This document shows positions 14,090-63,409 of a stretch of 64,000 nt of DNA, in pieces. This DNA comes from Eledone cirrhosa. Its lineage: Eukaryota. The DNA is taken from contig OZ024758.1 of NCBI GenBank assembly GCA_964016885.1, positions 4,464,001-4,528,000 on the forward strand, written 5' to 3'. The translations under genes were made by a program, and so were the position numbers. Numbering within the stretch: position 1 is the first letter of the stretch; every line of letters starts with the position of its first letter. The notes beneath the pieces are model-generated. The model was not told the DNA's origin, searched no databases, and saw only the letters and a list, made by a program, of their open reading frames with translations.

Positions 14090-17000
14090 GATAGCAACTA
14101 ACAGTGCTGCGATCGAATGTGGCTTTTTAGCCCAGCCAATGATCCAAAATGTCTTGCACAGAGTCGGCAACCAAAACATTTACTGGGAATAGTCGGCTGT
14201 GGTTGGAGTTCGTGTACTTTTGCATGTCGCTTGAGTCCTCCTGCTGATTTACATTCTCTACCACATGTTTGGCAAGCATGATGAGTAGCATCTCCAACAG
14301 CAGCCTGGTAGTCAACCACTGGTCTTACTTTATGACTGCGAAGATGACTTTCGAGTCCAGCTTTGCTTAGGCAGAGTCTCGCACAGACGCTGCATGTCAG
14401 AAACATAGGAGGACCCTCGCCGTCTGGAAGTGCAACAGCAATACCCTTCCTCACGTCCCGCTTTACTTTCTCGTGTGCGATTCGAGATGCCTCAAAGGCA
14501 ACTTTTCCCTCATATACAGTCTTTCTCCATTTATTACGATCAGCAGCAATATTTTCCCATGTATCAGCAGAGATGTTAGCGTCTTTCAGAGAGGCCTTCA
14601 AGGAATCCTTATACCTCTTTTTTGGTTTATGTGGCGGTCGTTTTCCTTTAACCAACTCTCCATAGAAGAGTTGTTTTGGTATTCTAGAATCCTTCATCCT
14701 GGCAAGGTGACCACTCCAACGGAGTCGCTGCTTAAGCACAAGAGCTTCTATACTGTCACACATAGAGCTTTCCAAAATCTCGACATCACTGATGTGGTCC
14801 CTCCAGCGAACGCCATGTATCCGTCTGAGACACATCTGATGGAAACGCTCCAATTGCTTAAGGTGGCGTCGATATGTGACCCAGGTCTCGCAGGCATAAA
14901 GAAGACAAGAGAGTACACATGCCCTGTACACCCTTACCTTTGTCCTCCTGCATATGTCTCGCCGACCCCAGAGTCGCCTTTCTAGCTTTCCGAAAGCATC
15001 ACTTGCTTTCCTAATCCTAAGTGAGATTTCACTGTCAAGGTTGCCGTATCGATTGACAGTGCTTCCCAGGTAGACAAACTGATCAACCACTCCAAGTCGT
15101 TTGCCATACACATAGATGTTTGGTTCAGTGTACTGCCTACCAGGTGCAGGTTGGTACATGACGACGGTTTTCTTGAGACTGACAGTCAAACCCAGGGCAG
15201 TGCAAGCGTCAGAAAATACATTCAAAATGTGCTGCATATCACTCTCTGTGTGCGCTACAAGATCGCAATCATCTGCATACAAGAGGTCTCTTATGACTGA
15301 TGTAAATACTTTTGTCTTCGCAGCAAAGCGCCTGATGTTAAATATGCTGCCTGAGGTTCGATATCGGATGTAAACACCATGCTCGCAATTCCTGAATGCA
15401 ATACAGAAAACCATTGCAAAGTATATGGCAAACAGGGTCGGTGCTGGAATATCCCCCTGTTTCACTCCATTTTTTACTGAGATAGGCTCCGACATGTTAC
15501 CTCCGACATTAACCCAAGCCTTCATGTCGTCATGGAAAGACCTAACTAAAGCAAGGAACTTATCAGGGCAACCAAGTTTCTGGAGAACCTTCCATAATGC
15601 ATCTCTGTTGACAGTATCGAAAGCCTTTGTCAGATCGACAAAAACCTGATACAGATCCAAGCCCTGTTCAATGCACTTCTCCTGGAGCTGTCTAGCTGAG
15701 AAGATCATATCAGTAGTGCCGCGTCCAACACGAAAACCAGATTGACTTTCAGGAAGGACACAATCTGCAATGTGTGTCAGCAGACGGTCCAGAAGCACCC
15801 TACATAAAACTTTCCCCACGACAGAAAGCAATGATATACCTCTGTAGTTCCCACAATCATTCCTGTTACCCTTTCCCTTGTACAAGACCACCATTACTGC
15901 ATCTCTCCAGTCCTCAGGCACGGATTCATTGGCCCATATCCTTCCAAACAGAGAGTGAAGATGTTGCAGGAGTCTCTCACCACCATATTGTAGGAGCTCA
16001 GCATGTATGCCATCCATACCTGGAGATCTTCCACTGTTCAGCTTCGAAATAGCCACTGCAACCTCCACAAGTGTCGGAGGCTCTGCGAGAGCTACTTTCA
16101 CAGGACTTTCCGGAATGAGATTGAGGAAATCTTCACTGACGACAGACGGCTGATTCAAAAGATCATCAAAGTGCTCCCGCCACCTTCGTAGAATTCCCTG
16201 TGAGTCACGAAGAAGTTCTTTGCCATCCTTGCTGCGAATCGGTGTCACCAGAGAAGAAGACGGTCCATAAACCTCACGCAAGAGACTGTACAACAGCTTT
16301 GTGTTATTGCAATCAGACGCAGTTTGTATCTCACCAGCCTTCTCACTCCACCACTGATCCTTCATCTGAGAAAGACTCCGCCTAACACGTGATTTTACAT
16401 CCCTGAGCTCCTCCTGCAACGTATTCCTCTCCTGTGGTCTTGCCGTCAAGTAGCGTGACAGAGCGCGCCTCTTATCAGCCAACAAGTCATCTATATGCAC
16501 ATCTTTCTCATTAAACCAGTCCTGATGTTTTCTCTGCACCAATCCCAGAACACGTCTGCCTACATCATAAACCGACTTTTTAAGGGTCGGCCAATCCTCA
16601 CCAAGATCTGCAGCCTGCATCTCTTCTTCCAATGTCCTCTTCACATTTTTATCCTTAAGACGAGCAGCATTCAATCTTTTGGGCAGGGTAACACCAGGAG
16701 CCCGGATTTTACGTTTGGTGATTAGATTCACTTTTGCGCGTACCAGGCGGTGGTCCGTCCAGCACTCAGCTCCACGAAGAACACGAACACACCGCACATC
16801 CTGTCTGTCACGCATCCTGACTAGGACGTAGTCCAAAAGATGCCATTCCTTAGATGCAGGATGCATCCATGTGGTCTTGAATTTGTTCTTTTGTTGGAAC
16901 ATGGTGTTGGTAACACACAGATCCAGCTCCTCACACATCTGCAGCAAGAGCATACCATTGCTGTTACACTTTCCCACCCCATGCCTTCCGATTACATTCC

Positions 17001-17116
17001 ATGTGTTAAAATCCCTACCCACTCTAGCATTAAAGTCACCAAGCACGATGACTTTGTCTGCCTGAGGGATATTTCTTAAAACACCTTTCAAGGCATGGTA
17101 AAAGGACAGTTTTTCT
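13816..17116 (-). mobile_element. RTE-clade non-LTR retrotransposon, 5'-truncated, with an uninterrupted ORF
   Basis: Single APE-RT ORF. The 3' UTR has microsatellites and a terminal stem-loop ATGGCCATACTCG-ATAA-CGAG..GCCATCAT. Both ends abut (TA/TG)n. Confidence 0.93.
14098..17116 (-). CDS. RTE LINE ORF: C-terminal half of APE, reverse transcriptase and 3 C2H2 zinc fingers (~1000 codons, no true start codon)
   Basis: APE motifs LGDFNARVG, TWMHP, LLDYVL, WTDHRLV. RT motifs YRGISLL, QSGFR, FVDLTKAFDTV, GVKQGD, LLYADD, FVYLGS. Fingers CSVC..HLRSH, CQTC..HAKVH, CRLC..HIRSQH. The N-terminal MYIYI.. of the track ORF is microsatellite. Confidence 0.92.
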
Positions 17117-17148
17117 ACATATACACACACATATATATATACATATAT

Positions 17149-17179
<31 letters not shown>

Positions 17180-17258
17180 CATGTATACACACACACAGAC
17201 ACTAACATATATACATAAACATACATATACACACACACACATATATATATACATCTAT

Positions 17259-17289
<31 letters not shown>

Positions 17290-18994
17290 CATCTATACAC
17301 ACACATATATATATATATACATCTATACACACACACACATATATATACATACATACACATCTTTACACACATATATGTGTACACTTGTTTAAACAGACAG
17401 AGATATGTCAATAGACCAGATGTGTTAATGCCAAAGATGATTATCTATGAGTTAGATCGTCTGTGAAGGGAAGACTCTCTTGTAAATCAGTCTGTCAATT
17501 CGTTGAATATGTATCCATGGCGTGTTGTTAAAATATAGATGCTGCCATTTATTCCTTGTACGATTGTCAGTGTTCTTTGATCCTATCACTTATATTACTG
17601 GTCGTTTCTAACTACGAATAGAAATAAAAAACAGAAATTCAAATTAAGATATGAGCTAGACATTACAGGTTTTGTGTCTAAGAATTTTTACAGAGAATCC
17701 GCTGTTGCTTAAGAAAATGTCTTACTCACCAGATCACCACATTATATCCAGCAAGAAAATATCCAAACGTAGGACTGGCGTGCGGTTCTCGCCACAGTTC
17801 GCGCTCAGTTGATCCTAACGTGGGTAAAAAAATTCCCAGCACCTTTGGATTGAAATGATCATGTAGGCTATAAACATTGTTAGATATTTAACCACCATAC
17901 AGTGAAATTCGGCTACATTTGTTGTAGAAATCTCCCGTCACTAATAAACAGAAGAACCCTCCACATTCCGGATGGTCATTGTTTTAATACGAAGGGGTAT
18001 ATTTTGTGGGAGACTTGATTTTATAACAGGTGAAATTGTCCTTTAGTCATGCTTTCGTTTGTTCGTGGTCTCTACATTTGGGGGGGGGGGTAGTGTTGCT
18101 ATTACAATTGTTGTTTCGATCGTATATAATAACTTGGAGATTATATTGATATTAAAGTATGACGTATTTCTTTTAATGATGTTCCTAAGAACTCATTCGT
18201 TTAATTCTATGATGGTATGCATTGGAGTTTTGCAATATACTGTTTATCGGATTTTGGTGTGCACAAATTGTATTATTTGAGTCTGTGCGTAAACAGTCTG
18301 CTCACGCAATCTACTGTTCTATTACATTATCTATTACTGGTTACTGACAAACAGTTGCTTAATTCTAGAAATTGATTCATGGTGTAGATTAACGATGACG
18401 TATAATGAGCACGGAATATTTTCTTTTTTTCTTAAATGACACTCACTATTTTAAAATTCAAATCATGCAGTGAGTGGATGTGAACATAGGAACAGTTAAC
18501 ATTGATATTATCACAGTATTCTTGCGCATTTTCTCGCGATTTATGAAACTATTTTACTTTAAATGTATCTCAGAACTTTTGCGTTTCACGTCAAGTGTGT
18601 ACAATGTCTATGGGAAAACATTTCGTCAAAACATTCTGGAAAAATTATATCATACAAGAAATATAAATTATTAATCATTAAATGTTAATCATAATTGTCT
18701 CATTAGGTTTGGAAAATATTGTGTTCGAATGTAATTAAGCAAGGCCATTCGATGGGAAGCAATCTGTCTCAATCAGCAACAGGCTTGTAAATTTTGATGT
18801 ATATTGAGGGATTTGAATAACGTGTGGCAGGTAATGTTCAGAATTTATTACATGGTGATAATGAGACTTTTTCACATAGAAATGAATGGAAATCACAATT
18901 GTTTTATTCAGATAGTGTGTAATATATCCCTGCACAAACGATTAAACAGAAAATATCTAGAAAGACTTTCATAAAAAATGCTAGTTTCTTTTTT

Positions 18995-19345
18995 TTTTTT
19001 AGACTTTTTAGAGACCTTAGAATCCTGGCTGATCTTTGCAAGGCTGTTTTATTCAACAATCCCGTTTTGATTGTAATTCCTAGCTTCTCAAGCCATGCAT
19101 CCAACCTTCTACTAACTCCTCCCAGTGCGCCAACCACAATCGGTATCATTTGTATGTGTCTGATTCTCCATAGTTTCGGGATATCCCTCTTCAGCTCCTG
19201 GTATTTCTCATCTTTCTTACTTTCCTTCTTTACCTTATGATCCCTCCATGAATCTATATCAACAATAATTGCCTTGTTATTCTCTTTTCTTCGACACCAA
19301 AGTCAAGTTTTCTAGCCATGATAAGATGGTCGCACTGAATGTTCA
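18995..19345 (-). mobile_element. Dong/R4-clade non-LTR 3' fragment (restriction-like endonuclease), degenerate
   Basis: IPIVVGALG...LLNKTALQRSARILR. The upstream frame has KYQELKRDI..LW. Confidence 0.75.
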
Positions 19346-20069: not shown

Positions 20070-20570
20070 GTTGTTCTTTGAGTCTCAGTCATTGATGTTA
20101 TTTAAATGGAAAGTTTGTTGAAATGAATATCAAGCCACTACCTGCAGCCTCAGATATTCAGGACGTATCGGAGGGTTCTTGCTGTTCCCAGCAAGCATGG
20201 CTTTTGAAGTGTTCCAAAAAGCGGGGCTGGACTAATCTTTAACCATCCTTGGAAACTCTTTGAGATAGTAACTAGTGCTCCTATGACAATCGGGACGACC
20301 TTGATTTCAAGGCAGTTCCAAATCCTTTTTACCTCCCACTTTAAATCCAGGTATCGGTTAATTTTCTGCCTCTCCTGTTCTTGCACTCTCGTGTCAAATG
20401 GGCAGGCTACATCTACAATCAGGCACGATCTTTTTTCCTTGTCCAAAACCACCAGGTCAGGCCTATTGTGTTCTAATTTTATGTCCGTCTGTATCCTAAA
20501 ATCCCATAGTACCTTCATCTGATCGTTTTCTATCACCGACTCTGGCTTATGCTCATACCACTTCTCAAAA
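20070..20570 (-). mobile_element. Dong/R4-clade non-LTR 3' fragment inserted in (TAA)n-type repeats
   Basis: KWYEHKPESVIEN..KVLWDFRIQTD..HNRPDLVVLDK..IVDVACPFD..KINRYLDLK..VVPIVIGAL..LQKPCLLGTARTLR. ATT/ATC repeats lie at both junctions. Confidence 0.88.
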
Positions 20571-21895
20571 ATTATCATTATCATTATTATCGTTATCGTT
20601 ATTATCATTATCATGATCATCATTATCATTATTGTTGGTGTTGCTAGTTTTGTTTTTTGTGTTTATAATATCCCCTATCGTGTGACCCCCAATGTATTAT
20701 CATTAATATTATTCCGAACATTAATATATTTTTTTCTAATTAATCACTAGATTAAATATTCAATCTGCCATAATCTGAAATCATTCTTGTGTAGATGTCA
20801 CAGAAAATAATATATTTCTGCGTTTATCCTTGAATCTAATATATTTTTTGTTTTCCTATTATAAATTCGGTTTATAAACAATATAATTGTTTTCTACATC
20901 TTATTCTGATAATCAGCTAATTAGCTTAACGTTATTGAATACTTTTTTTTTTCCTTAATTTTTGCTATTATCGTTTTCATTTACCATTTTTATGTAAACA
21001 ACATAATTACACGAACGAAGAATTTTTGAAAATTTTATTTTTATTGGTATTCTTATAAAATTCTAATAAATATTATTTATTTGTTATATTTCTTTATATT
21101 ATATTTTAATCTAATGTCTCACTGTTCCATTGTTTAGAATAATTGCACATTAGTAAACATATGTGGAATGGAATCGGGGAGGTTTCAGCGTTTTTTTTTT
21201 TTTAATATGTTACAACTGATTAAAATTCAGCGACTTGGCGCAAAAAACATTAGGGCACCTGAGTAAATCAATACTTTATAATTATTTAATTATCCTAATG
21301 TAGAGTTTTATAACCCGTCTATAATAATCTTGTTATATTTCTTTACTTTTCATCGATCAGAAAAATACATATGAAATGAATCAATTTAATCTAAGATAGT
21401 AACACGTTGGTAAAATTTGACTTGTAATTAATCAAGAGATCAAAATATTTGCTATCATATGTGGGACATAATCAGACCATATTTGTAGCATTAAACATGA
21501 TTTTTAGTTGTCAAAATGATAGAGAAGGTCAAACAATGAGTCGACCAAATGTTTTGCGAGCTGGAATGGCTTCTCCTTCACCATCTTCCGGAGAAAACAT
21601 CTTCTCCATTCTGCCTGCCTGGGTCGCATGGCAGTCAGCGCGTGGACCCAGATGTTTTACTATAAAAACAATAAGTGGTTTACCTAAAGCACTGTTGCAG
21701 TGGTAAACGCTAAAAGAATTGCAAACAATTCCTGGACGAAGCCATTTGATCATTCCGAACTGTAGATCATTTCTTGACCCCTAATAAATAAATGGGAAGG
21801 AATTTTTCTCACCCACCGTAAACACTTTAGACTCATATCCACCAGCACAAAAAATTTAAGAGGATGTTACCTACTCTCTGTCTGAGAAGAGTATA

Positions 21896-22930: not shown

Positions 22931-23184
22931 CCTTCCTGAAATTCCTGTCCATAAGGATGAATTAGATATCATTAATGATTTCATGACAATGACTTTTACT
23001 TTCAATTTTTCTTCTCCCACTTAATTTTGAGTCGTGAAAAACTCTTAATGTGTCCTGTCTGAAGCAACCGTCTCAAAGTTCTTTTGTAGCTACACCAGTG
23101 TTCATTCTCACCAGCAGAGTTCAGTAGTATTCAAATCTGAAGAGAGGCTTACTGCAGTAAGTCTTTACACTTAGCATATAAACT

Positions 23185-27216: not shown

Positions 27217-28119
27217 CCCTAAAAGCTATATAGTCACGACTGGAATATATATATGTATATGTCCGCTCGAGCAGTGACGAGTATGTGTTAACCTGTACCA
27301 ACAAGTTTAGTTAACACATCTTACTATCAAATAGTATACATATACTCTTCAAAGCAAACTAATATATTTATATTTACCGACACACGTAATATATCGCTAT
27401 TTACATCGCATTTTATTTCTTTACTTTTGTAATTAGCATATTTGATTGTACATTCAATAGTTTTTGCATCTTCTTACATATATGCATTCACTATTATTTC
27501 TGCGTAGATTAATTTCCATCGTTGTTCCTTATAATTTAATGTTACTTAAACAACTGAAGCAATATACATAAAAGCTATCGTGTCGGTTTGATTATACGAC
27601 TGAATGCACTTAAAAGAAATTAAGTTTTCGAAATGAAAATTGTTAAATTCATATATTGGTGATGTTTCCATATTATTTGTTGATGCTTATATCTCCTTTA
27701 CATTTTTTTTATTTATGTATGTGTGTATTGCACGCATAATGTTAACAGTGTGAATGCGTTGCTATTTTTTTAGTATATCTTTTGAATAAACCACGTTTAT
27801 ATTTTATTGATAATATATTCAGCAATCTATCTACATACCGCCATTGATTTTCACTAGCTGACCTCATTTGTTCATTTGCGAAAGAACTAATGGATATTAC
27901 GTAGTTGATGAAACCAAACATTTTCGAATAGATTCCCTGCGGAAAATATTTGATCACCTTTAATACTGCAACATATACTTGAGTACGCAAACAATGTAAA
28001 TTTCTTTTATTATATTCTTATTACCGAGAAGATGGTTTTCGATAAACAACGCTGTTTGTCGCCATTAGAGACTCATTACGACCACTAAATATTGAAAGAT
28101 AGCATTAATGAAATGACCA

Positions 28120-28139
28120 TATATATATATATATATATA

Positions 28140-28225
<86 letters not shown>

Positions 28226-28421
28226 GTGTATAGATATATATACCGTGTATATATATATATATACCGTGTATATATATATATACTGTGTATATATATATAT
28301 ACTGTGTATATATATATACTGTGTATATATATATACTGTGTATATATATATACTGTGTATATATATATATTGTGTATATATATATATTGTGTATATATAT
28401 ATATTGTGTATATATATATAT

Positions 28422-28453
<32 letters not shown>

Positions 28454-28470
28454 CTGTGTATATATATATA

Positions 28471-28501
<31 letters not shown>

Positions 28502-28502
28502 C

Positions 28503-28533
<31 letters not shown>

Positions 28534-28628
28534 TGTGTATATATATATATTGTGTATATATATATATATATATATATATACTGTCTATATATATATATAT
28601 ATATATATATACCGTGTATATATATATA

Positions 28629-28661
<33 letters not shown>

Positions 28662-28662
28662 C

Positions 28663-28697
<35 letters not shown>

Positions 28698-28712
28698 TGT
28701 ATATATATATAC

Positions 28713-28743
<31 letters not shown>

Positions 28744-29024
28744 CGTGTATATATATATACTGTGTATATATATATATATATATATACCGTGTATATATAT
28801 ATACTGTGTATATATATATACTGTGTATATATATATATATATATATACCGTGTATATATATATACTGTGTATATATATATACTGTGTATATATATATATA
28901 TATACTGTCTATATATATATATATATATATACTGTCTATATATATATATATATACTGTCTATATATATATATATATACTGTCTATATATATATATATACT
29001 GTCTATATATATATATATATATAC

Positions 29025-29057
<33 letters not shown>

Positions 29058-29325
29058 TGTCTATATATATATATATACTGTCTATATATATATATATATA
29101 TACTGTCTATATATATATATATATATACTGTCTATATATATATATATATATATACTGTCTATATATATATATATATATATACTGTCTATATATATATATA
29201 TATATATACTGTCTATATATATATATACTGTGTATATATATATATATATACTGTGTATATATATATATACTGTGTATATATATATATACTGTGTATATAC
29301 TGTGTATTTATATATATATACTGTG
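28120..29325. repeat. 1.2-kb compound minisatellite [C(T/C)GT(G/C)(TA)n]x~55
   Basis: Direct reading. It explains the 350-415 aa pseudo-ORFs. Confidence 0.95.
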
Positions 29326-29354
29326 AGAGTGACTGTTAGAAGGGGTAAAGGGAA

Positions 29355-29388
<34 letters not shown>

Positions 29389-29700
29389 AAAGTAAGTCCA
29401 TAGAATCATTTGATAAAATATATACAGTATTTCTTCTCCCAATCACCATAATCAACCACATAAAAAAAAATCAATTAAACGAGGCTATAAGTTTAAAATG
29501 TACTTATGAAGAAACAATAGATAAATAAATGATAGCTATTTTATCCGCGATCCACAGCCACAGAAGATTTACCTAGTATTTCTAATAGCCCGTAGAAATT
29601 GACTAGACATATAGTTAACCATACACAATTAGGTACAAAATCAAAGTTAGAAGAAAAAAATGTACATAAACATACCAAAACCATGTGTCGAAACAAATAT

Positions 29701-30147
29701 TATACTTGGGGAAGGTCATATTGTTGTAATACTATTGCCAGAAATAATAACAGAACACTCACTGTTTTCGCTTCTGTATCTTTTATATCTCCATAGTTAA
29801 TTGTTTTGCCAATCAATGTTTATCATTGATTGACCAGCGATTAAAAATACATATATATATATATAGTCTATCATAATTCCTCTTATTGTATTGCATAGAC
29901 ATACAATACAATAGGAGGAAATATAATAGTACCACTGATGATGTTGCAGGTGTGCAACGAAAGAACTTTGATAGACTATATATATTTATATCTGTATTTT
30001 TAACCGCTGGATAAACATTGATTGCCAAATAAATTAACTATGGAGATATAAAAGATACGAAGCGGAAACCAACCAAACAGGGAGTGTGTTATTGTTTCTG
30101 TTATTATTTCTGGCAATATTACAACAATATGACCCTCCCCAAGTATA
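29701..30147. mobile_element. Fold-back Penelope-like pLTR element (family H-C)
   Basis: Imperfect ~170-bp inverted arms (TATACTTGGGG.. / ..CCCCAAGTATA) with a hammerhead at the loop/right-arm junction. A related copy lies at 62150-62350. Confidence 0.65.
29926..29979 (+). ncRNA. Minimal type-I hammerhead ribozyme motif
   Basis: UACCA-CUGAUGA-U-GUUGCA(GGUG)UGCAAC-GAA-AGAACU-U-UGAUA. Intact core and a perfect 6-bp stem II. Confidence 0.7.
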
Positions 30148-31554
30148 GCAATATATATATATATATATATATATATCTTTATATAAATATATACTCAAAT
30201 AGACGCACAACATTTTGTGCTTCTCTTTCTAACTTATAACATACTTCTATATATCTTTAACATTTATCTTTTTTACTTTTTCTCTCCCACCTACCCTATC
30301 TTTTTCTCCCTTTCCCCTTCTTTCCAGTTTTATACACATTTCCGAACCAATCCTTCCCACTCAGTCGTTTTCCCCCACAGGTCCTTCTCTTTCTTTATAT
30401 CTTCATCTATCTAACCCTAGTTTTTTTTACACTCAAGCTAAATATTTTCTACCTATATGTTGCTTTCCTTCACTCATTCCCTTTCTGTCACTTTTTCTTT
30501 TTTCACACTTCTCTAAATCTATATCTGTCTCCATTGCACTACATCCAAAGTTTGAATCATCAATCTACTCCTTATTTCACTCATTCTTACCACTTTTCCG
30601 CATGATAATTCCTAGAGCAATAAATTTTCATTTAGCACTCAATGAAACCATTTTTTAATCGTCCATTTGAAAAATACGCATACTTATTGGAAATTTTATT
30701 TTCGTATCTCTTTCAATCTCCCATTCCTGTCTTAGCTTCTTTCAATGTTTCTTACTTTCACTATTTTCTCACTTTTTCTTTCTCACTTTCATTCTTTCTT
30801 CCAATCTTGTGTCGCAATTTCACTTGAAGCCTCATGTTAGACCATTGAGAGTTTATTTCAAATCTGTTATATGTTTTCTCCTTTGGTGAGATGAAATGTT
30901 CTATAATTTAAAGTAAAGAAAAAAGGAGAGAGAGAGAAAGAGAGAGAGAGAATTTTCTGACATTAAACCTTTACCACTAACACCAGTGGCTTAAGTGAAG
31001 CGAATTTGATTTCAACTGGAGAAAAACTACATAGACAATTCAATTAACTAAGATTTCATGGCTTCATCTTCATGAATAGTGTTTGTGGATTACTTTACGA
31101 ATTTATGTGACATTGCAGAGATTGGGTATATTTATAATCCAAAACATTCAATCCTGCCCATGACGTTTTTGCTTTTTGTTTTTATCTTCGGTTTTTGAAT
31201 TTTTCAGATAATTTATCTTGGATTACATCATCCATTACGTCCTTTATTTTGAAGATGGTACGGTGTTATGTAATAGTATTTTTAGCAATGCGAACATAAC
31301 TGTTGCTTTTGTTCTGGATTAACCTCAGAACCATCGCTTAGCATCTGGTCTTCTACTTTATAGTTAAAGAAGTCCTAGAAACACCTCGACTACTGTTTCC
31401 TTCTTTAAAGGAGATAAGTTGTGATCTGAAAGGAGATGGGGTGCTATCTCTAGCAGATCAGGTGACTGTGTAGTAGCTTCTTGCTAAGTCGGTTTACATT
31501 GGTTGCATATATAGTATAATATTCCAGTTTTTGACTGGCTATGATAATGAAATA

Positions 31555-41550: not shown

Positions 41551-42162
41551 ATCTCGTTTGTACGTAGGTATGTATAACAATGCATCTTTTGTACATCTGA
41601 ATGTACTTTTGTATCAATAATGTTTTCTACTTGTTCATCTTTGCTTCTGACTATAATTGTCTTGTATGTGTGTATGTTTGTATCAAAGCCACAGCTATAT
41701 ATGTCGTATGTGTGTGTTTGTATCAAAGTCACAGCTCTATATATATGTCGCATGTGTGTCTTTTTCTAGTTGAACATAAAATAATATTGTCTGGGTGATT
41801 TATAAGAAATGCAGCTATGTTATAACAACAAAGAAATGAAGTTGTTTTATGGCAATAAGCCAAGTTACCCATCAGCTTTGAAAGATTGATGTAAGTGCTA
41901 CGAGATAATAGGCTTCCCAATAGAATCTTATTCACTCATTGTCGCTCTCCCTTTTTAATTATAACCACATAATCTTGAGTCCTGGCCAGATTTCGCATAG
42001 ATTATTGTTCAGCCAGACGTCCCAAATGAGCAGGTATTTGTCCGGTTGACATGTTTACGCCCATTTAATGTTTATATTACTATTAGCATATGGTTGGTGG
42101 ATTAGCAGAATTGTTAAAGTGTCAGAAATATGATTGTGATAATTCTGTCGCCATTTTATGAC

Positions 42163-42265
42163 AGACCCCCCCCCCCCCCCAATTCTAAAAGTCCAAACGG
42201 CACGTACCATGAAAAATAATGCCCCCAAACGTGGTGAAATGAGCCAAAATGAGGAGATTTTATAT
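42163..42265 (-). mobile_element. MITE M1 partial copy
   Basis: CAGACC..TCTAAAAGTCCAAACGG..TACCATGAAAAA..CCCCAAACGTGG. Confidence 0.55.
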
Positions 42266-42310
42266 ATATACGATATTAACAAATGGACAATATATTTATA
42301 AAACCATATT

Positions 42311-42375
42311 TATTTCATTATACATATTTCAAGGACACCAAGTTAAATTATGGTGTGCTTTCATCAGACAAAATA
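42311..42375 (-). ncRNA. Minimal type-I hammerhead ribozyme motif, best preserved (family H-E)
   Basis: UAUUUUGU-CUGAUGA-AAGCACACCA(UAAUUUAACU)UGGUGUCCUU-GAA-AUAUGUAU-A-AUGAAAUA. Stem I has 8 bp including 2 GU; stem II has 9 of 10 pairs. Confidence 0.78.
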
Positions 42376-42699
42376 TAATATAGATCAGTTTTATAAATAA
42401 ATATTGACATACCCTTAAAAAATGCAACTGTTGGAAGCTCCCGGATATATATATATATATATATATATAAATAAGATTTCAAAGGAGCAGCATTGCTAGA
42501 CAATGGTGTTTACTTTGAACCTCCGTAAGAATTACATTAATGGCTCATGTATTAAGGCGAAAGCAGCGATTCTTTGCTTAAACTTTAATCTGTTATTTTA
42601 ATAAATATTTGCTCTTATATTTTTGATATATATTTATCCTTATCGAGCCCTCTTTGGATTTTAGTCTTCAAATTTATTATTATTCCTATATATATATAT

Positions 42700-43015
42700 G
42701 TATATATATAAATATATATATATATACATATATAAAACTCTATTTCAAAATAAGATTTAAAATTTACTATGAGAAAATCTTCCGTCGTATGTAGTTTACT
42801 TATTGTTGTTGCTGTTTGCAACATATTATGTCTGTGAAATTCCTTTCATTCTAAAGCCATACAATTCCCATAGATTTTATGATCACAGCGGAGAAAGCTG
42901 ATACGCTTTGATAAAAGTCGGGGCAGAGAAAAACGCAGACAAAAGAATATTTTACATCTGAAAGACAGCTGAAATTTGATTCAAATTTTAGAGCTCCACC
43001 ATAAGATATATCTAA
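42700..43015 (-). mobile_element. Decayed hAT (Charlie/SPIN-like) transposase fragment
   Basis: Diverged paralog of 45600-45935, sharing TTTCATTCTAAAGCCA.ACAATTCCCATAGATT. Confidence 0.45.
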
Positions 43016-43197
43016 CACAAATAAATATATTCATACGAGTCTACCCACATGTATGTGTACGTATATGAATAAATAAATTATATCAATATATATATATATA
43101 CGTTTATGTATACATACACAAATAAATACATTCATCCACCCACACATACATATATACATACATATAAGCATACAAATATGCACACATACATACAAAG

Positions 43198-43715
43198 ATG
43201 ATGGCTGCAAACTCTGCTAAGAGTATTGCAATCGCTTGTCGAATTATAGAGTTTGGTGAACTTTTAGGCTACGGCCAGCCACATGAACCTGTAACAAGCA
43301 ATGCCTGTGTTTTTTAAGTGGGGAAGGGCCTTGCACTCGACCAATCCCACTCTCTGAGCATAGAAAATACTACCCGATCGGGAGAACTGGTCACCATGAT
43401 CGGATGTTTCTGAAGCCACAGGTATTTTTCAGAATTTCCCTCTCTTAGAAAGGTGTTGTGACAACAACTGGGGGCCTTTCACTCCCAGGTGAAAAAAAGA
43501 ACAAAAAAAAAGAACTACTATTTGTATGGCCGTTGATTCTGCTGAGTTCCTCTGCCCTTTGCCTGATCTTGTATTTCATCCAGCAGGGTGTCCCAATATC
43601 ACCCTCCTCACCAAGTTAGAGTGGTGGGGTTGCAGGTTTAGTCGCCGACGACCCGACCACGAGACATGTTGCACTGGGTTACATGTTACCAGTAGCACTG
43701 GAGAGCGACCTGACA
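43198..43715 (-). mobile_element. Non-autonomous RTE derivative R1 (diverged)
   Basis: Its 5' region matches 44300-44440, and its 3' end is GATGATGGCTGC. Confidence 0.65.
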
Positions 43716-43845
43716 TAACGAAGCATACATATATAGAGAAAATGCATAAATATATAGCTGTTCTGTCGAAGATTTTTCCGAGTTACATGTTACCAGTAGC
43801 ACTCGAGAGCAACCTGACATACATACATACATACATACATACATA

Positions 43846-44440
43846 TGGTGGCTGCCAACTCGTTTTCGAGTACGGCCACTACCTTAGATCCATGTAGGAG
43901 AACCCATACCGATGTGCTGAACGAGCGTGACTTTTTAGTCCAGCCAGCGACTTGAAAACTCTGGTAGAAACACTACACTTGCGACAATTATTGACACATA
44001 GTGCTGGGCCCATGGTACCATGTGACGGCAAGTGCAGAGAGATCTCCAGATATAAAGCAATGCCTGTGCCGTGAAGCTTTAGTGAGCAAAGGCACTGCAC
44101 AAAGCTAGTCCCACTCTCTTAACCAAGATGATATTTACCAAAAAGATGAACAAGTCAACATCATTGGATACCATCAGGGTTGCAGGTGTTATATCAGAGC
44201 TTTCCTTCGCCTAGAATTCTGCCTTGACAAAGGCTAAGGGGTCATCTCTCCCGATGATTTTGGATAGCTATTGACTTCTAAGAGCTCCTTTGCTCTTTGA
44301 CAGGTTTTGTTTTTAGTCCTGCAGGATGTCCAAAGTCACCCTCCTCACCAAGAATCCTTGGTGGGGTTGCCAGTTTAGTCGCCAACGACCCGACCATGGG
44401 ACAGGTTGTATTGGGATACATGTTACCAGTAACACCTGAC
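43846..44440 (-). mobile_element. Non-autonomous bipartite RTE derivative R1, apparently full length (~600 bp)
   Basis: An RTE-like 5' UTR is fused to a zinc-finger remnant (CSVSTRVFKSLAGLKSHARSAH) and a 3' stem-loop CTCG-AAAA-CGAG. (CATA)n lies on both sides. Confidence 0.8.
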
Positions 44441-44559
44441 ATACATACATACATACATACATACATACATACATACATACATACATACATACATACATAC
44501 ATACATACATACATACATACATTCAGAAATGCATACATGTATAGCTGGGCTGTCGGAGG

Positions 44560-44810
44560 CTTATCCGACACTAGCGTTCTAAAATGTTTACGAATCTATG
44601 GGTTTAGTTTCTGGACCCTTTCGAAATATTCATTTTCCTCCGGTTCGTTGCTCCAAACACCTCGCCCAGTGAATCTTCTACTTTTCGATGCAGGATGCGA
44701 GTAGAGAATATGGTGAACAAACGAAATATTTTTCTCTGCCAAAAAACTAGGATCTGCTGCGACGAATATGTTGTGGGGCTTGTCATGGTGCCGTTGTCAG
44801 TTTTATCTGG
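44560..44810 (-). mobile_element. Mariner transposase remnant
   Basis: Minus-strand HHDKPH...FLAEKNISFVHHILYS resembles the mariner motif HHDNAP.H..FLAEKNI..HP.YSP. Confidence 0.5.
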
Positions 44811-44865
44811 CCCACAGTAATAATAAATGTGAATACTAAAATTTGAAGAAAAGGGCTCGATAAGG

Positions 44866-44909
<44 letters not shown>

Positions 44910-45103
44910 GGTATCTAGGAATTAGATAAACGTAATGAATGAGTAACCAATCGACCTTGTTATTTTATTACACTATAATACACTCTGTCTAGCTCTACAC
45001 CTCGACACTGAAGTGAACCTAAACATCGAGTGCTCACCCGGGTGAACCTACAGTAAATATATATAAAACCAAACCATAGAGCAAATATTTATTATAAGTA
45101 GAG

Positions 45104-45195
45104 ATTAAAGTTTAAGCAAAGATTCACTGCTTTCACCCTTATCGGGATTTTCTGAAATTCAGGGTGAAAGCAACGGTTCTTTGCTTAAACTTAAT
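45104..45195. repeat. Inverted repeat with the 3' half of a hammerhead-like motif (family H-F)
   Basis: Arms 45104-45139 and 45161-45195, containing GAA-AGCA(..)UGCU-U-AAAC. The same family occurs at 42555-42680. Confidence 0.55.
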
Positions 45196-45202
45196 ATGTA
45201 CT

Positions 45203-45272
<70 letters not shown>

Positions 45273-45398
45273 ATAATTGTTTCTACTTTTAGCACAAGGC
45301 CAGCAATTACCCAGTAGTGAAGTCTAAAATCCAAATAAATATATATATTTATTATTTAATAAATATATATATATATATATTTATTTATCTAATTATTT

Positions 45399-45436
<38 letters not shown>

Positions 45437-45599
45437 GATACATATATATTTATTTATTTATTTATTTATTTGTTTGTTTGTTTGTTTTTGTGTGTGCGTG
45501 TGCGTGTGCGTGTGTGTGTGCGTGTGTGTGTGTGTTTGTAAAGAAAGAATAAAAAAACTAGGGAAGTGGAGCAGTAACCAAGCTGGTGGTATATTGAGT

Positions 45600-45935
45600 T
45601 ATCTTTGTCGGCTGGTGTTGCAGGAAACAAAAATATTCTGTACATTATTACAGCTTCACAGAACATTCTTACAGAATTGTATCTTTAGAAAAATTAAGAT
45701 TTAAATAGTGACATAAAAAACTATCTTCCTCTGTTTATAGTTGTGGATATTTGCGTTTTAGAATGACTGGGTAAAATTCTTTTCATTCTAAAGCCAGACA
45801 ATTCCCATAGATTTATTTGGCATGATCACAGGTGTGACATCTGTTACACTTGAAGAACATTTATAAAAGAATTTTTCACATCACAAAGACTTCTGAAATT
45901 ACTTTTAAAAACTCCATCTTCAAATATATCTTCTT
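45600..45935 (-). mobile_element. Decayed hAT (Charlie/SPIN-like) transposase fragment
   Basis: Minus-strand frames read EDIFE.. and SSVTDVTPVIMPNKSMGIV, resembling TDGAPxM.G..G. A likely HCIIH.E remnant follows. Confidence 0.5.
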
Positions 45936-46573
45936 AGTGTTTTTGGACAGTCTATACGTCTGATCATGTTATGAATTCTATATGAATGCATGTATGTATG
46001 TATGTATGTATGTATGTATGTATGCATGCATGCATATGTGTATATCTGTATGTGTGTGTGTGTGTTTGTATGTATATATGCATGCACGTATGTATGTATT
46101 TATATATTATTATTATTACTATATATATATATATGTATGTATGTATAAGAAAGTAAGTTCATAGAATCATTTGATAAAATATATACAGTATTTCTTCTCC
46201 CAATTAGCATAATTAACCACACAAAAAAATCAATTAAACGAGGCTATAAGTTTAAAATCTACTTATGAAGAAACTATAGATAAATAAATAATTTAATTAA
46301 TTAATTCGTCATTGAACAACACCGTGAATTGTTGCCAAAACACATATATATCTATGGCTCTGTCTAGTTTATGTATATGTAAATCTATATATATGTATGT
46401 ATATATTTATATATATTTATATATGTAATTTGCGAATTCGCATGAATAACTATGTAACAGAAATATATATCATGCAATAAACAATTATGGTGAATTAATC
46501 CCGTCTTGAATACCATTATTTGGTATGTATATATTTGGTATGTAATGTATGTATATACATATATATATATTAT

Positions 46574-47205
<632 letters not shown>

Positions 47206-49611
47206 TGCGTGTGTGTATGTAGTCTGTCATGTATTCCAGCCTAACAAATTACAAAAATATCCATTTCCGTCTATATATGGCAGGGAATATTGGCTTTTAC
47301 GAGTTTTTTTATCTTTCTCATTCCTTACGTAGCTGTGAATATTTATATCTCCTTGCATTTGTTTGAAAGTTTCAGTAAGTTATTTTGTGAATCTTTTCTC
47401 TTTTTTGTTTCTGTCTCTTTGAACACAATGACACAATTGCTGACAAACATATGTTTCGTCTAATGTAAGTATAGATTTACTCTACTGAATAGTTACCGAT
47501 ATACCTTTTGAAGACATATGTAATTTCAAAGAAGATTTGTATTTCAAATATCTTATTCTTTTTACAGTACTACAATTGAATGAGTTAGAAGAGTTATAAG
47601 CAATTGTAATTCAAATGTTTTATCTGAAGGTATAATTTCGGATCGTTTGTTGAAATAATCATAGTCAAGTTCAGTGGTTATTGATATGTTCCCATTTCTG
47701 ATATCAGTATATTGGAGAGGAAGGTCTCCAGGCCAGTATTTCCAGTTGATTTGTTCACTTGTTTATGGAACATATAGATTACTGCTACAGAAACCTTCTA
47801 ACCAACGTGTAATTGACCACCAACTTCCTATTCCGCCTTTGTACTCTATGATCTAGTCTACACGCCAGTGAACACTGCAGTATATTATTACTTCTACGTT
47901 TCCATGCTCCTATAACTACCTCTTACAGCAATAAATCAATAAACATCTTCATCTAATATCATTCGTTAGACCTAAGGAGATCGAGCTAAGAATTTCTCTT
48001 ATCTTGTCTTGCAATAGAATTTCATATTGATCTCACATTGCAATCTTTAAAATTCATGTAACAACGACGCAAGTCTGTATTTTAAATATTATTTCACTCA
48101 TCGTACTTTTCTGTATTTCAAAACTGCAACATCATCACTGTTAGTTTTGCAAATAGATTCATTTTCTTTATTTTCTTTTACTATTTACGTTTATTTTCAT
48201 CAACATTTTTCTTCTTTTCTTTTGGATTATATATATATATATTTTTGGCAGACATTTTCTTTTGATTGAATTTTGTCACTCCTATCAGTACCCTATAGCA
48301 TCTAATATCACTATAACACACTTCTATTGTTGAGAAATACCATTATTAGCAGACATTGTATTACAGATTATAACACCAATGTATTAGTAATTCGATATAA
48401 AGATTTGTTATCACAACTTTTATATGAGATACGTTGGTTTATATGTGATCTTAATAAACATAACAAGCAAGTTGTTATTCTCACAGTAAAATTACTCTTA
48501 CTAGACAAGTTGGTACGCAGAATTGTTTAGAGGTTTTCATCTAATGAACAGATATATAATTAATAAAGTTCAAGTTATGTATATCCTACATTTCATATAT
48601 TAACTATTTAAAAACCTCAACAGGCAAATTAAACTGATCTCTGATTAATAACCTTCCAGTTATGTATATTGTACATTTCATCTATATATACTGCTCCAAG
48701 GATTATAAAGTCCAGTATCCCCTAAGATTGTTTGAAAATGATAATGTATGTTTTGATTTACGGCAAATTATGGCTTTTTCAAGCAAATTAATGGTGACAT
48801 AGAGCCTCCAATTACGGATTCATAAACATGATGTTGTGATGACCCACGGTGATAAACAGATCATGTATTTTGATATTTCCATCGCTGACTTTGTAAAGCT
48901 GCCTTAGCTTATCTGAAAAATGGCTTGAAAATGAAATCGGAAACAATCGGATTAATAGTGAGAGAAGTCATATGTTGAACTTCATATCCAGGATTATCAA
49001 TATTGTCATGCTTATTTCTTTTAAAACATTTTCTTTCAAAGTCGTTAATCAATTTAAATATGATTTATGCTAATGTTAATTATGTTTCACTGCCTGATAC
49101 ACCACGTTCGTAAGAATTTCACCCTGAATAGTGATAACATTTGCAATAATCCTCAAGAAATATTTCTCAAACTAGGAGCCTAGCTTTTATAATTTTGAAT
49201 CCGTGTAACATATTTAAGGAGATTAGTTTAAATGTTAAATCAATCCGTTTGTTTAAGCAAATCTTATTCTATTTGTGTTAAACAAATATCATCGAATGTA
49301 CAGGTCGATAAGATATTGAATACTCATAAATAAAGTGATAAGAGCGTCTTCGTAACGAAACACTTAAGCTGAAGTTCCGCTGTGTAGATATACGTAAATA
49401 TTAGCTCTATACAATTGCCTAGAATTCCCACAGCTTGCACTATTCTAGATGATATTGAGAGAAAGGTTTTACAATCATACAAATTCTATGTACAACTCCA
49501 TGCATTTCACTCTGTTTTGACTGGTATTTTTTACGGTAGAGATTTAGTCAATGAATGCGTTTTCTGACAAAGTTCGGGTCGTCTAATTAAGCATGATTCT
49601 TTTATTTTATA

Positions 49612-62151: not shown

Positions 62152-62201
62152 ATTATTTCTGAAGAGGTCACAGAATGTGTGACGAAAGAACTTTGACAAT
62201 A
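62152..62201 (+). ncRNA. Hammerhead motif, family H-C (stem I decayed)
   Basis: CUGAAGA-G-GUCACA(GAAUG)UGUGAC-GAA-AGAACU-U-UGACAAU. Downstream ATGACCCTCCCAAAGTATA matches 30129-30147. Confidence 0.6.
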
Positions 62202-63409
62202 TATAAACAACCATTTGGTTGTGGAACCAACCAACCAACCGGAAATTTATAAATTCCTAAATTTATAAATTTATTATAATAAATTAAAATGAAAGCAACT
62301 GGTGCGTGTGTTTCTTATTGGCAACATGACCCTCCCAAAGTATAACAGTTTATTATTTCATTATAGGAATTCTGCAAATTCGTTGCCCTCGTAACTCTTG
62401 TGAAGATCGAGTATATTTACTTGGAACTATACCCTTTAAATTCGTAAAATATAAAGGAAATTTAATGTTTTAGAATTCATAAAAATTATAATCAAATTGA
62501 ATCAAAACAAATTTTTAAAAAATATGCATGTTCGATCAACATGTACTACTTATTAATGTGAAAATGGTTTAGTTATTTTTTTTATTTTTACGTTTGTGGT
62601 TGAACTGTCAAATTACTGAGAATGTGAGGTAATGGAAGGATTAAAATCGATGTTAAATTGCAACAAATCGAATCAGATCCTGTAAAGAATAATCTATCTC
62701 ACCAACATTGATATTATGATACAAAGAAATAATAATGGCTATGACCTTGCTATATTCATAAAGGGTTTAGCCAGTATCAAAACCACATTTTTACTAAAAT
62801 CTGTAATTATGAAGGAAATTACAAGCGGTTCTTGAGCGTGAGAGTTGAATAATCTTTACACAAGACATTTCCTCTTCAAATTAATTCCAAGTGTTACTGG
62901 TCTATCATATATCGCATAACAAACGGTGTAGAAGCAGAGATAGGCTTGTGTTGTCATTTATTCCAAATCATAAATCATAAACGTTTGCTATAGTTGAATA
63001 TATAACTACATTGTTACAGTTACAATCCCATCTAATCCTCACAGAACGGACAAAACATTGCAATACTTCCTAACAAATTCCATTGATCTTACAATGCTGC
63101 AGCTGTGTAGACTAGTGAGCTGTTCCACGAGAAACTACTTACTCACACCTAGAAGGACATGATAATGAGTGTTAGCTCTCTTGTCCCTACTATTCACATG
63201 GATAACATTGATTAAATAAAGATGTTTTATCAATGATTTAGATGAGAAATAGCTCATCTTGAAGGCACCACTTGCATTCTTTACTCCAGGTTAGCAATAG
63301 GAAATCTTATTGGTTTTTCAATAGGGTGATCTCGAAATCTGCAATACAGCGGACACAGAGAATCATATATATCTATTTATCTAAATGTCAATCCCTTTCG
63401 CTTTCTCTC

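Follow-up and report, generated by a model that had tools for sequence, protein, structure and literature searches.

The locus analysed here raises two questions: which kind of element left a fold-back with a hammerhead ribozyme in the genome of Eledone cirrhosa, and whether selection on the ribozyme fold can be read from it. The window, i.e. the whole stretch of DNA analysed, comprises 64,000 nt of contig OZ024758.1 (positions 4,464,001 to 4,528,000 of the forward strand, assembly GCA_964016885.1); it is AT-rich and contains many microsatellites. In the original prediction a fold-back was placed at 29701-30147, with a second hairpin in its loop, and the stem II differences between its hammerhead and that of a copy at 62152 were taken as direct in-window evidence of selection.

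The fold-back was confirmed by structure prediction, with a folding energy of -228.1 kcal/mol (z -23.6) that none of 100 shuffled sequences reached. Its arms, 29701-29893 and 29904-30147, are identical in 169 of 179 aligned columns; the 10 mismatches include private differences of each arm from the family. The hairpin at 29877-29920 exists as well, but it is not a separate structure, being the apex of the same fold-back and stacked on the long arms. The start at 29701 proved too short, as read depth and crossing reads place the left end of the insertion 315 nt further left, at 29386. The whole insertion, 29386-30150, is flanked by TA runs, 28 nt on the left and 26 nt on the right, and a target-site duplication is not readable inside such a microsatellite. 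The insertion and its flanks are made up as follows.

29358..29385, no strand: left half of the TA microsatellite target, 28 nt, from the list of TA runs
29386..29700, minus strand: 315-nt extension carried by the inverted unit only (a long "tail"), defined by read depth, by reads over 29699 and by an end shared with 46147-46292
29701..29873, minus strand: body of the inverted arm, matching 29969-30147
29874..29893, minus strand: innermost part of the inverted arm, matching 29904-29923; the 45 nt that contain the hammerhead are absent between it and the body
29877..29920, no strand: apex palindrome of the fold-back, with the loop at 29894-29903
29893..30150, plus strand: direct unit, 5′-truncated and pseudo-LTR-like; loose read ends before 29896-29931 indicate that other copies reach further upstream
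29935..29968, plus strand: minimal type I hammerhead core from C3 to H17, with the extra base at 29942, stem II at 29943-29958 and the predicted cut after 29968
29935..29971, plus strand: the same minimal type I hammerhead of the first copy including its 3′ core
30129..30147, plus strand: conserved end motif near the family 3′ terminus, from motif counts and from loose ends running into TA runs before 29700
30151..30176, no strand: right half of the TA microsatellite target, 26 nt

Two further observations were made at the insertion. A long compound TA-rich minisatellite is located directly left of it, at 28100-29340. Moreover, the inverted arm contains, within 29815-29834, a 10-nt piece that is absent from the direct arm at 30009 and present in 2,857 of 10,218 family reads; with this piece, a small stem-loop is complete on the downstream side of the hammerhead.

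For the analysis of the family beyond the window, four of the seven listed sequencing runs, representing at most three samples from two studies, were aligned to 29520-30330 at 80% likeness. Of the 205 variant rows, 34 joints and 881 loose ends, 40, 15 and 24, respectively, were listed, and absences among them are therefore weak. In read set X1 the depth reached 683,581 at 29940-29967 versus 13.9-16.4 in the unique flank. Since summed contig depth does not equal copy number, the resulting ratio of 42,000-49,000 was divided by 31 for overlap, which gives about 1,300-1,600; the family comprises at least about a thousand copies. In a RAD run, a library type biased toward restriction sites, 295,391 of 12,467,656 reads were aligned (2.4%). 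According to the loose read ends, other copies reach beyond 29896 on the upstream side and terminate at the end motif, in TA runs. Depth, upstream loose ends and a solo fragment at 46147-46292 together support dispersed, 5′-truncated insertions in high copy number. RAD read-end peaks at 29627/29630, 29802 and 30032/30035 sit on AATT sites and were discarded as library ends, and one further peak, at 30108, has no explanation of the AATT type. Opposite-strand joints between the arms were attributed to the palindromic reference and not considered further.

The same reads confirmed that the 315-nt extension belongs to the element, as it is covered at repeat-level depth. Among 1277 reads at 29699, 379 cross from the end motif into the extension with a 3-nt insertion, and 48 starts were counted. 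Assembled contigs span 29520-29684. The link between extension and end motif is a chain of overlapping reads and contigs rather than one molecule. A solo piece of the extension was found elsewhere in the window.

46147..46292, minus strand: solo extension piece that stops at the same base next to a TA run; identity with the extension in 146 of 156 aligned columns, TA flank included

The element has two 3′ termini about 312 nt apart. Between the extension and the sequence after the second copy no similarity was detected (80 of 300 shuffles scored at least as high). The extension contains a candidate 70-nt GT-AG intron at 29572-29503 on the minus strand; a 75-bp intron has been described in the pLTR of Penelope (PMC8557442).

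Terminal inverted repeats of about 190 nt that end in the same motif would also be expected of a miniature inverted-repeat DNA transposon (MITE or foldback element) with a hammerhead in its loop. The junction between the two arms argues against it. The ribozyme-less arm junction is near single-copy in X1 (about 12.8, versus 13.9-16.4 in the flank) and has a count of 0 in X2, X4 and X5; the exact fold-back is therefore not a unit of the family, and a shared structure of the MITE type is missing. In addition, the ends are asymmetric, with 315 extra nt on one of them, and the other copies at 62159-62344 and 46147-46292 are unpaired. The MITE explanation is thus largely refuted and retains scarcely any probability.

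The inverted arm is without the 45 nt that span the whole hammerhead, and this gap is flanked by imperfect short direct repeats. Its best-fitting breakpoints resume at 29969 or 29970, one or two bases past the predicted cut. Such a position would fit an inverted arm that was copied from self-cleaved RNA, the 5′ end of which is the hammerhead cut site, with a separate short palindrome attached at the junction. Within 29963-29972, however, no fewer than eight alternative breakpoints (among the best 10 listed) are only one mismatch worse, and the direct repeats beside the gap speak against this origin as well. Two other inversion joints end elsewhere, namely 29902/29951 (X1 and X2, one sample) and 29902/30096 (X4), and neither among the 15 of 34 joints nor among the 24 of 881 loose ends listed was one found at 29969. 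For one PLE, cleavage was moreover reported as dispensable for insertion in vitro (PMC11167929). An origin from cleaved RNA is therefore considered very unlikely, and the end of the deletion at the predicted cut site is probably due to microhomology.

Coding sequences were searched for as well. No reverse transcriptase (RT) or GIY-YIG frame tied to the family was detected, with 0 relevant Pfam matches in 150 of the 221 filtered window ORFs (475 in total) and none belonging to the family in a separate scan of 8 ORFs. A 34-residue frame from the end motif had 0 matches in 1.84 billion proteins and a 46-residue frame after the second copy yielded no homologue candidate; both are weak negatives. 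Other elements are present in the window. At 14098-17292 on the minus strand, a stop-to-stop frame of 1064 residues carries a weak endonuclease domain, RVT_1 (E 1.2e-30) and C2H2 fingers and represents a near-intact LINE, which we take to be RTE-like. For two frames at 18904-19302 and 20150-20662, also on the minus strand, Pfam gave only weak, unrelated matches; by motif they presumably resemble the C-terminal ends of restriction-like-endonuclease LINEs.

Taken together, the insertion at 29386-30150 is read, with a probability of roughly 0.8, as a single, old and non-coding insertion that derives from the 3′ end (pseudo-LTR) of a Penelope-like element (PLE) family with high copy number, or from a non-autonomous derivative of this family; the hairpin stretch would accordingly be an ordinary decayed end-piece of a very abundant element. 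We infer the membership in the PLEs, since no RT/GIY-YIG frame is tied to the family. A Neptune-like clade is only a guess, as Naiads are without canonical hammerheads.

The very high copy number and the lack of coding sequence in what was searched could alternatively point to a stand-alone non-autonomous hammerhead retroelement, retrozyme- or SINE-like, which has no coding parent and is moved in trans by a PLE, and animal retrozymes have been proposed as derivatives of PLE pLTRs (bioRxiv 10.64898/2026.07.22.740005). Retrozymes, however, are described as head-to-tail tandems with canonical hammerheads (PMC7229834), whereas single or inverted copies with a minimal PLE-type hammerhead are found here. 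The two cores in the window are 32 kb apart and belong to different families, so that no retrozyme tandem is formed, and the loose ends reveal longer upstream sequence in other copies, which argues against a stand-alone element. This alternative is regarded as distinctly unlikely.

Under the preferred reading as a PLE end, the insertion may have arisen in the following way. An element protein would nick the TA microsatellite and reverse-transcribe the element RNA from an internal site, as known from PLE biology and from PAc (PMC11167929). Synthesis would stop near 29893-29903 and fold back by self-priming, giving a head-to-head inverted copy with a junction palindrome (cf. PMC3846280), and one end would retain the longer extension. 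At synthesis or later, a 45-nt microhomology deletion between short imperfect direct repeats would strip the ribozyme from the inverted arm, and the two arms would diverge after insertion. In the master element the hammerhead, with its stem III of 2 bp, would need a dimer or the help of a protein to cut after CUU (PMC4209133, PMC11167929). The observations on which this scheme draws are the geometry, the high copy number, the variable 5′ extent, the two 3′ termini, the TA target and the minimal hammerhead with its maintained stem II.

The hammerheads were predicted correctly in their structural details. In the first copy, stem II is formed by GTTGCA (29943-29948) and TGCAAC (29953-29958), a perfect reverse complement of 6 bp; at the second site GTCACA (62167-62172) and TGTGAC (62178-62183) likewise form a perfect stem of 6 bp, with two facing pairs changed in comparison to 29943-29958. 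Both sites contain one extra base after A9 (T29942 and G62166), and the 13-nt 3′ core GAAAGAACTTTGA is identical at 29959-29971 and 62184-62196. The core bases C3, U4, G5, A6, N7, G8 and A9, G12, A13, A14 and A15.1, and U16.1 and H17 are present, as are the extra base between positions 9 and 10.1, the pair G10.1-C11.1 and a long helix II with predicted pair probabilities of 0.85-1.0. Among the 40 of 205 variant rows listed, none affects a fixed core base. The core pattern, which was written after the sites had been seen, has 2 matches in the window versus a mean of 0.02 in shuffled sequences (0 of 100 shuffles reached 2), and the 19-nt end motif occurs 3 times versus 0.02 in shuffles. The distance from the core to where the end motif stops is 179 nt in the first copy (stop at 30147) and 151 nt in the sister copy.

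Helix I, for which 4-5 bp are expected, is broken at both sites: the first copy forms 4 of 5 pairs with an inner mismatch, and in the second copy the first pair is U-U. This state was read from the two window copies and not from the family. Predicted pair probabilities in stem I do not exceed 0.05 and fall to 0.0 in the full fold-back, where the 3′ strand of stem I pairs with the inverted arm instead (probability 0.66-1.0). At stem III, G15.2 and C16.2 are complementary, the 2-nt loop (AA) is not self-complementary, and the self-duplex energy amounts to +1.4 kcal/mol. According to these structure predictions, both window copies are probably inactive as ribozymes, because stem I is broken in both and, at 29935, is sequestered by the inverted arm.

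At gathering score no Rfam family matched the 64-kb window. Ranked by E-value, the first site had 20 matches and the second site 1, and no hammerhead was among them; the microRNA matches are generic hairpin matches below their own gathering scores and were rejected. For the minimal form of the hammerhead such a miss would be expected. Two further candidates in the window were dismissed, a loose core at 19174-19194 (minus strand) with a stem of only 3 bp and a 14-mer with one mismatch at 23073, which by eye has no 5′ box. Furthermore, A9, the extra U and G10.1 (29941-29943, plus strand) form an ATG 28 nt before the predicted cut, which is not kept in the 62159 copy or in the metagenomic relative L014 (see below) and is followed by no long frame. 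The start codon of PAc is located 26 nt before its cut site (PMC11167929).

The second site, called a copy in the original prediction, shares only the hammerhead and the end motif with the first one and is neither a close copy nor a fold-back.

62159..62196, plus strand: hammerhead of a distant sister family, with the core at 62159-62193, stem II at 62167-62183 and U-U as first stem I pair
62326..62344, plus strand: end motif of the sister copy, without inverted partner

The similarity of 62159-62344 to the first site is detectable (nhmmer, E 2.7e-6), and the spacer between hammerhead and end motif has diverged to chance level (63 of 300 shuffles scored at least as high). Judged by sequence comparison, 62159-62344 represents a sister family rather than a copy.

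Stem II also varies within the family. T29945C, C29955T and A29956G co-vary across five read sets, from 1.2-1.8% to 37.7-40.2%. The respective shares are 2.6, 1.8 and 2.1% in X1, 2.1, 1.9 and 2.1% in X2, 37.7, 39.1 and 40.2% in X4, and 1.2, 1.8 and 1.4% as well as 14.8, 17.6 and 14.9% in the two directions of X5; the linkage is shown by the high shares, and values of 1-3% may in part be background. The partner change G29946A is not among the 40 of 205 variant rows listed, the shares of which seem to go down to about 38%. The second stem II type is a real, linked minority haplotype of the family, but it amounts to one contrast. It makes up about 38-40% of the depth in the small library X4 and about 2% in X1 and X2.

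Relatives from other collections were scanned for further stem II types. Prokaryote genomes gave 0 matches for hammerhead relatives, and the 6 matches in viral contigs were all without stem II. One of 20 matches in metagenomes was kept, namely L014 (JAAUYA010412495.1, 1501-1539, minus strand), which shares the core and whose stem II has a bulge, 5 of 6 pairs kept and a third pair type. It is embedded in AT-rich non-coding DNA of a metagenome record and is probably DNA of the host animal. Dropped candidates include L021, in which three of four pairs are G-U, and L007, which is located inside a protein-coding frame.

The reading as a minimal type I hammerhead with a maintained stem II and a real second stem II type thus stands. 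As direct in-window evidence of selection, however, the stem II changes are not sufficient, as they amount to one contrast at the level of families, and each of the four changes is a TG/CA swap. If the four changes are placed at random, all six pairs are kept with a chance of 0.003-0.013, a value that ignores that the sites were picked for perfect stems. With L014 as third sequence, pairing is found in 17 of 18 cells, and 2 of 6 pairs show double-sided changes; this test is weak, as the count of two such pairs is reached in 48 and the covariation score in 24 of 500 shuffles.

Alternatively, the two compensated pairs could be the product of CpG decay on both arms or of a single template switch, with no selection involved, which would be compatible with the PLE explanation. 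Starting from an ancestor with CG on both arms, 2 of 16 equally likely outcomes give stems that are perfect but differ from each other, and the nature of the four differences fits such decay. In the window the observed/expected ratio is 0.72 for CpG, 1.22 for TG and 1.20 for CA, a depletion of CpG that is only moderate. Template switching is described as generating multibase compensatory changes in one event (PMC8794818). Against an origin without selection stand the low random-placement chance given above, the transversion pair type (G-C) of L014 at the same stem II position, and the likeness of core and stem II while the spacer has diverged to chance level. An origin of this kind is hence rather unlikely, and stem II has likely been kept by selection on master RNAs, which falls short of proof. 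Any such selection acted on master elements and not on the two window copies, because stem I is broken in them and, at 29935, tied up by the inverted arm.

Hammerheads of metazoan PLEs were reported with an extra base, G10.1-C11.1, a long helix II, a tiny helix III and compensatory changes within families, mostly as single motifs from truncated PLEs (PMC4209133). The window copies share the extra base, G10.1-C11.1, the long helix II and the tiny helix III with these minimal hammerheads; they differ in helix I, which has 4-5 bp there and is broken in both window copies, and in loop III, the AA of which is not self-complementary here (PMC4209133). The matching stem II changes are real, but such changes have already been described for PLE hammerheads, and the alignment figures of that study may already contain this hammerhead type (PMC4209133). 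An inverted 5′-truncated copy, a one-sided tail and a bias for TA are traits of PLEs (PMC8557442), and junction palindromes, a shorter inverted pLTR and microhomology deletions were found in PLE insertions (PMC3846280). Accordingly, the insertion resembles complex EN+ PLE insertions in the head-to-head copy, the junction palindrome, the shorter inverted copy and the one-sided extension (PMC3846280, PMC8557442), and its TA microsatellite target is a feature stated among EN+ PLEs for Neptune and Naiad (PMC8557442). Unlike EN+ PLE insertions, it has no ORF in or tied to 29386-30150. The extension of about 315 nt is roughly 10 times longer than the published PLE tail of 30-40 bp.

PAc, a Poseidon element of the green anole, is alike in its pLTR hammerhead, AT-rich target and two tail-defining 3′ termini; its ORF starts at stem II and its RT start sites are close together, whereas here no open frame follows and the termini are about 312 nt apart (PMC11167929). 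With the non-LTR retrozymes of animals the family has in common that it is non-coding, high-copy and low in GC and carries a type I hammerhead; retrozymes differ by their tandem head-to-tail organization and canonical hammerhead, as opposed to the inverted arrangement and the minimal hammerhead observed here (PMC7229834; bioRxiv 10.64898/2026.07.22.740005). In the literature listings and passages searched, no paper dealt with this family or described inverted arms that stop at a cut site.

The one real difference from described PLE ends is the length of the extension, and a long one-sided extension would, if confirmed in an assembly, widen the known range of PLE tails. Otherwise, the locus adds one more family of PLE-type hammerhead ends and matters little as it stands. 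It also calls for caution, since a "covariation" between two sequences provides weak evidence if it consists of TG/CA swaps. What PLE hammerheads do is described as unclear (PMC8557442), and for PAc cleavage proved dispensable in vitro and did not show up in RNA reads (PMC11167929). If the inverted arm had indeed been copied from self-cleaved RNA, fold-backs of this type would be a genomic record of PLE hammerheads cutting in vivo, with the cut product used as template. Whether ends accumulate at the cut site could be read from the family itself, as its truncated and inverted copies would run into the thousands.
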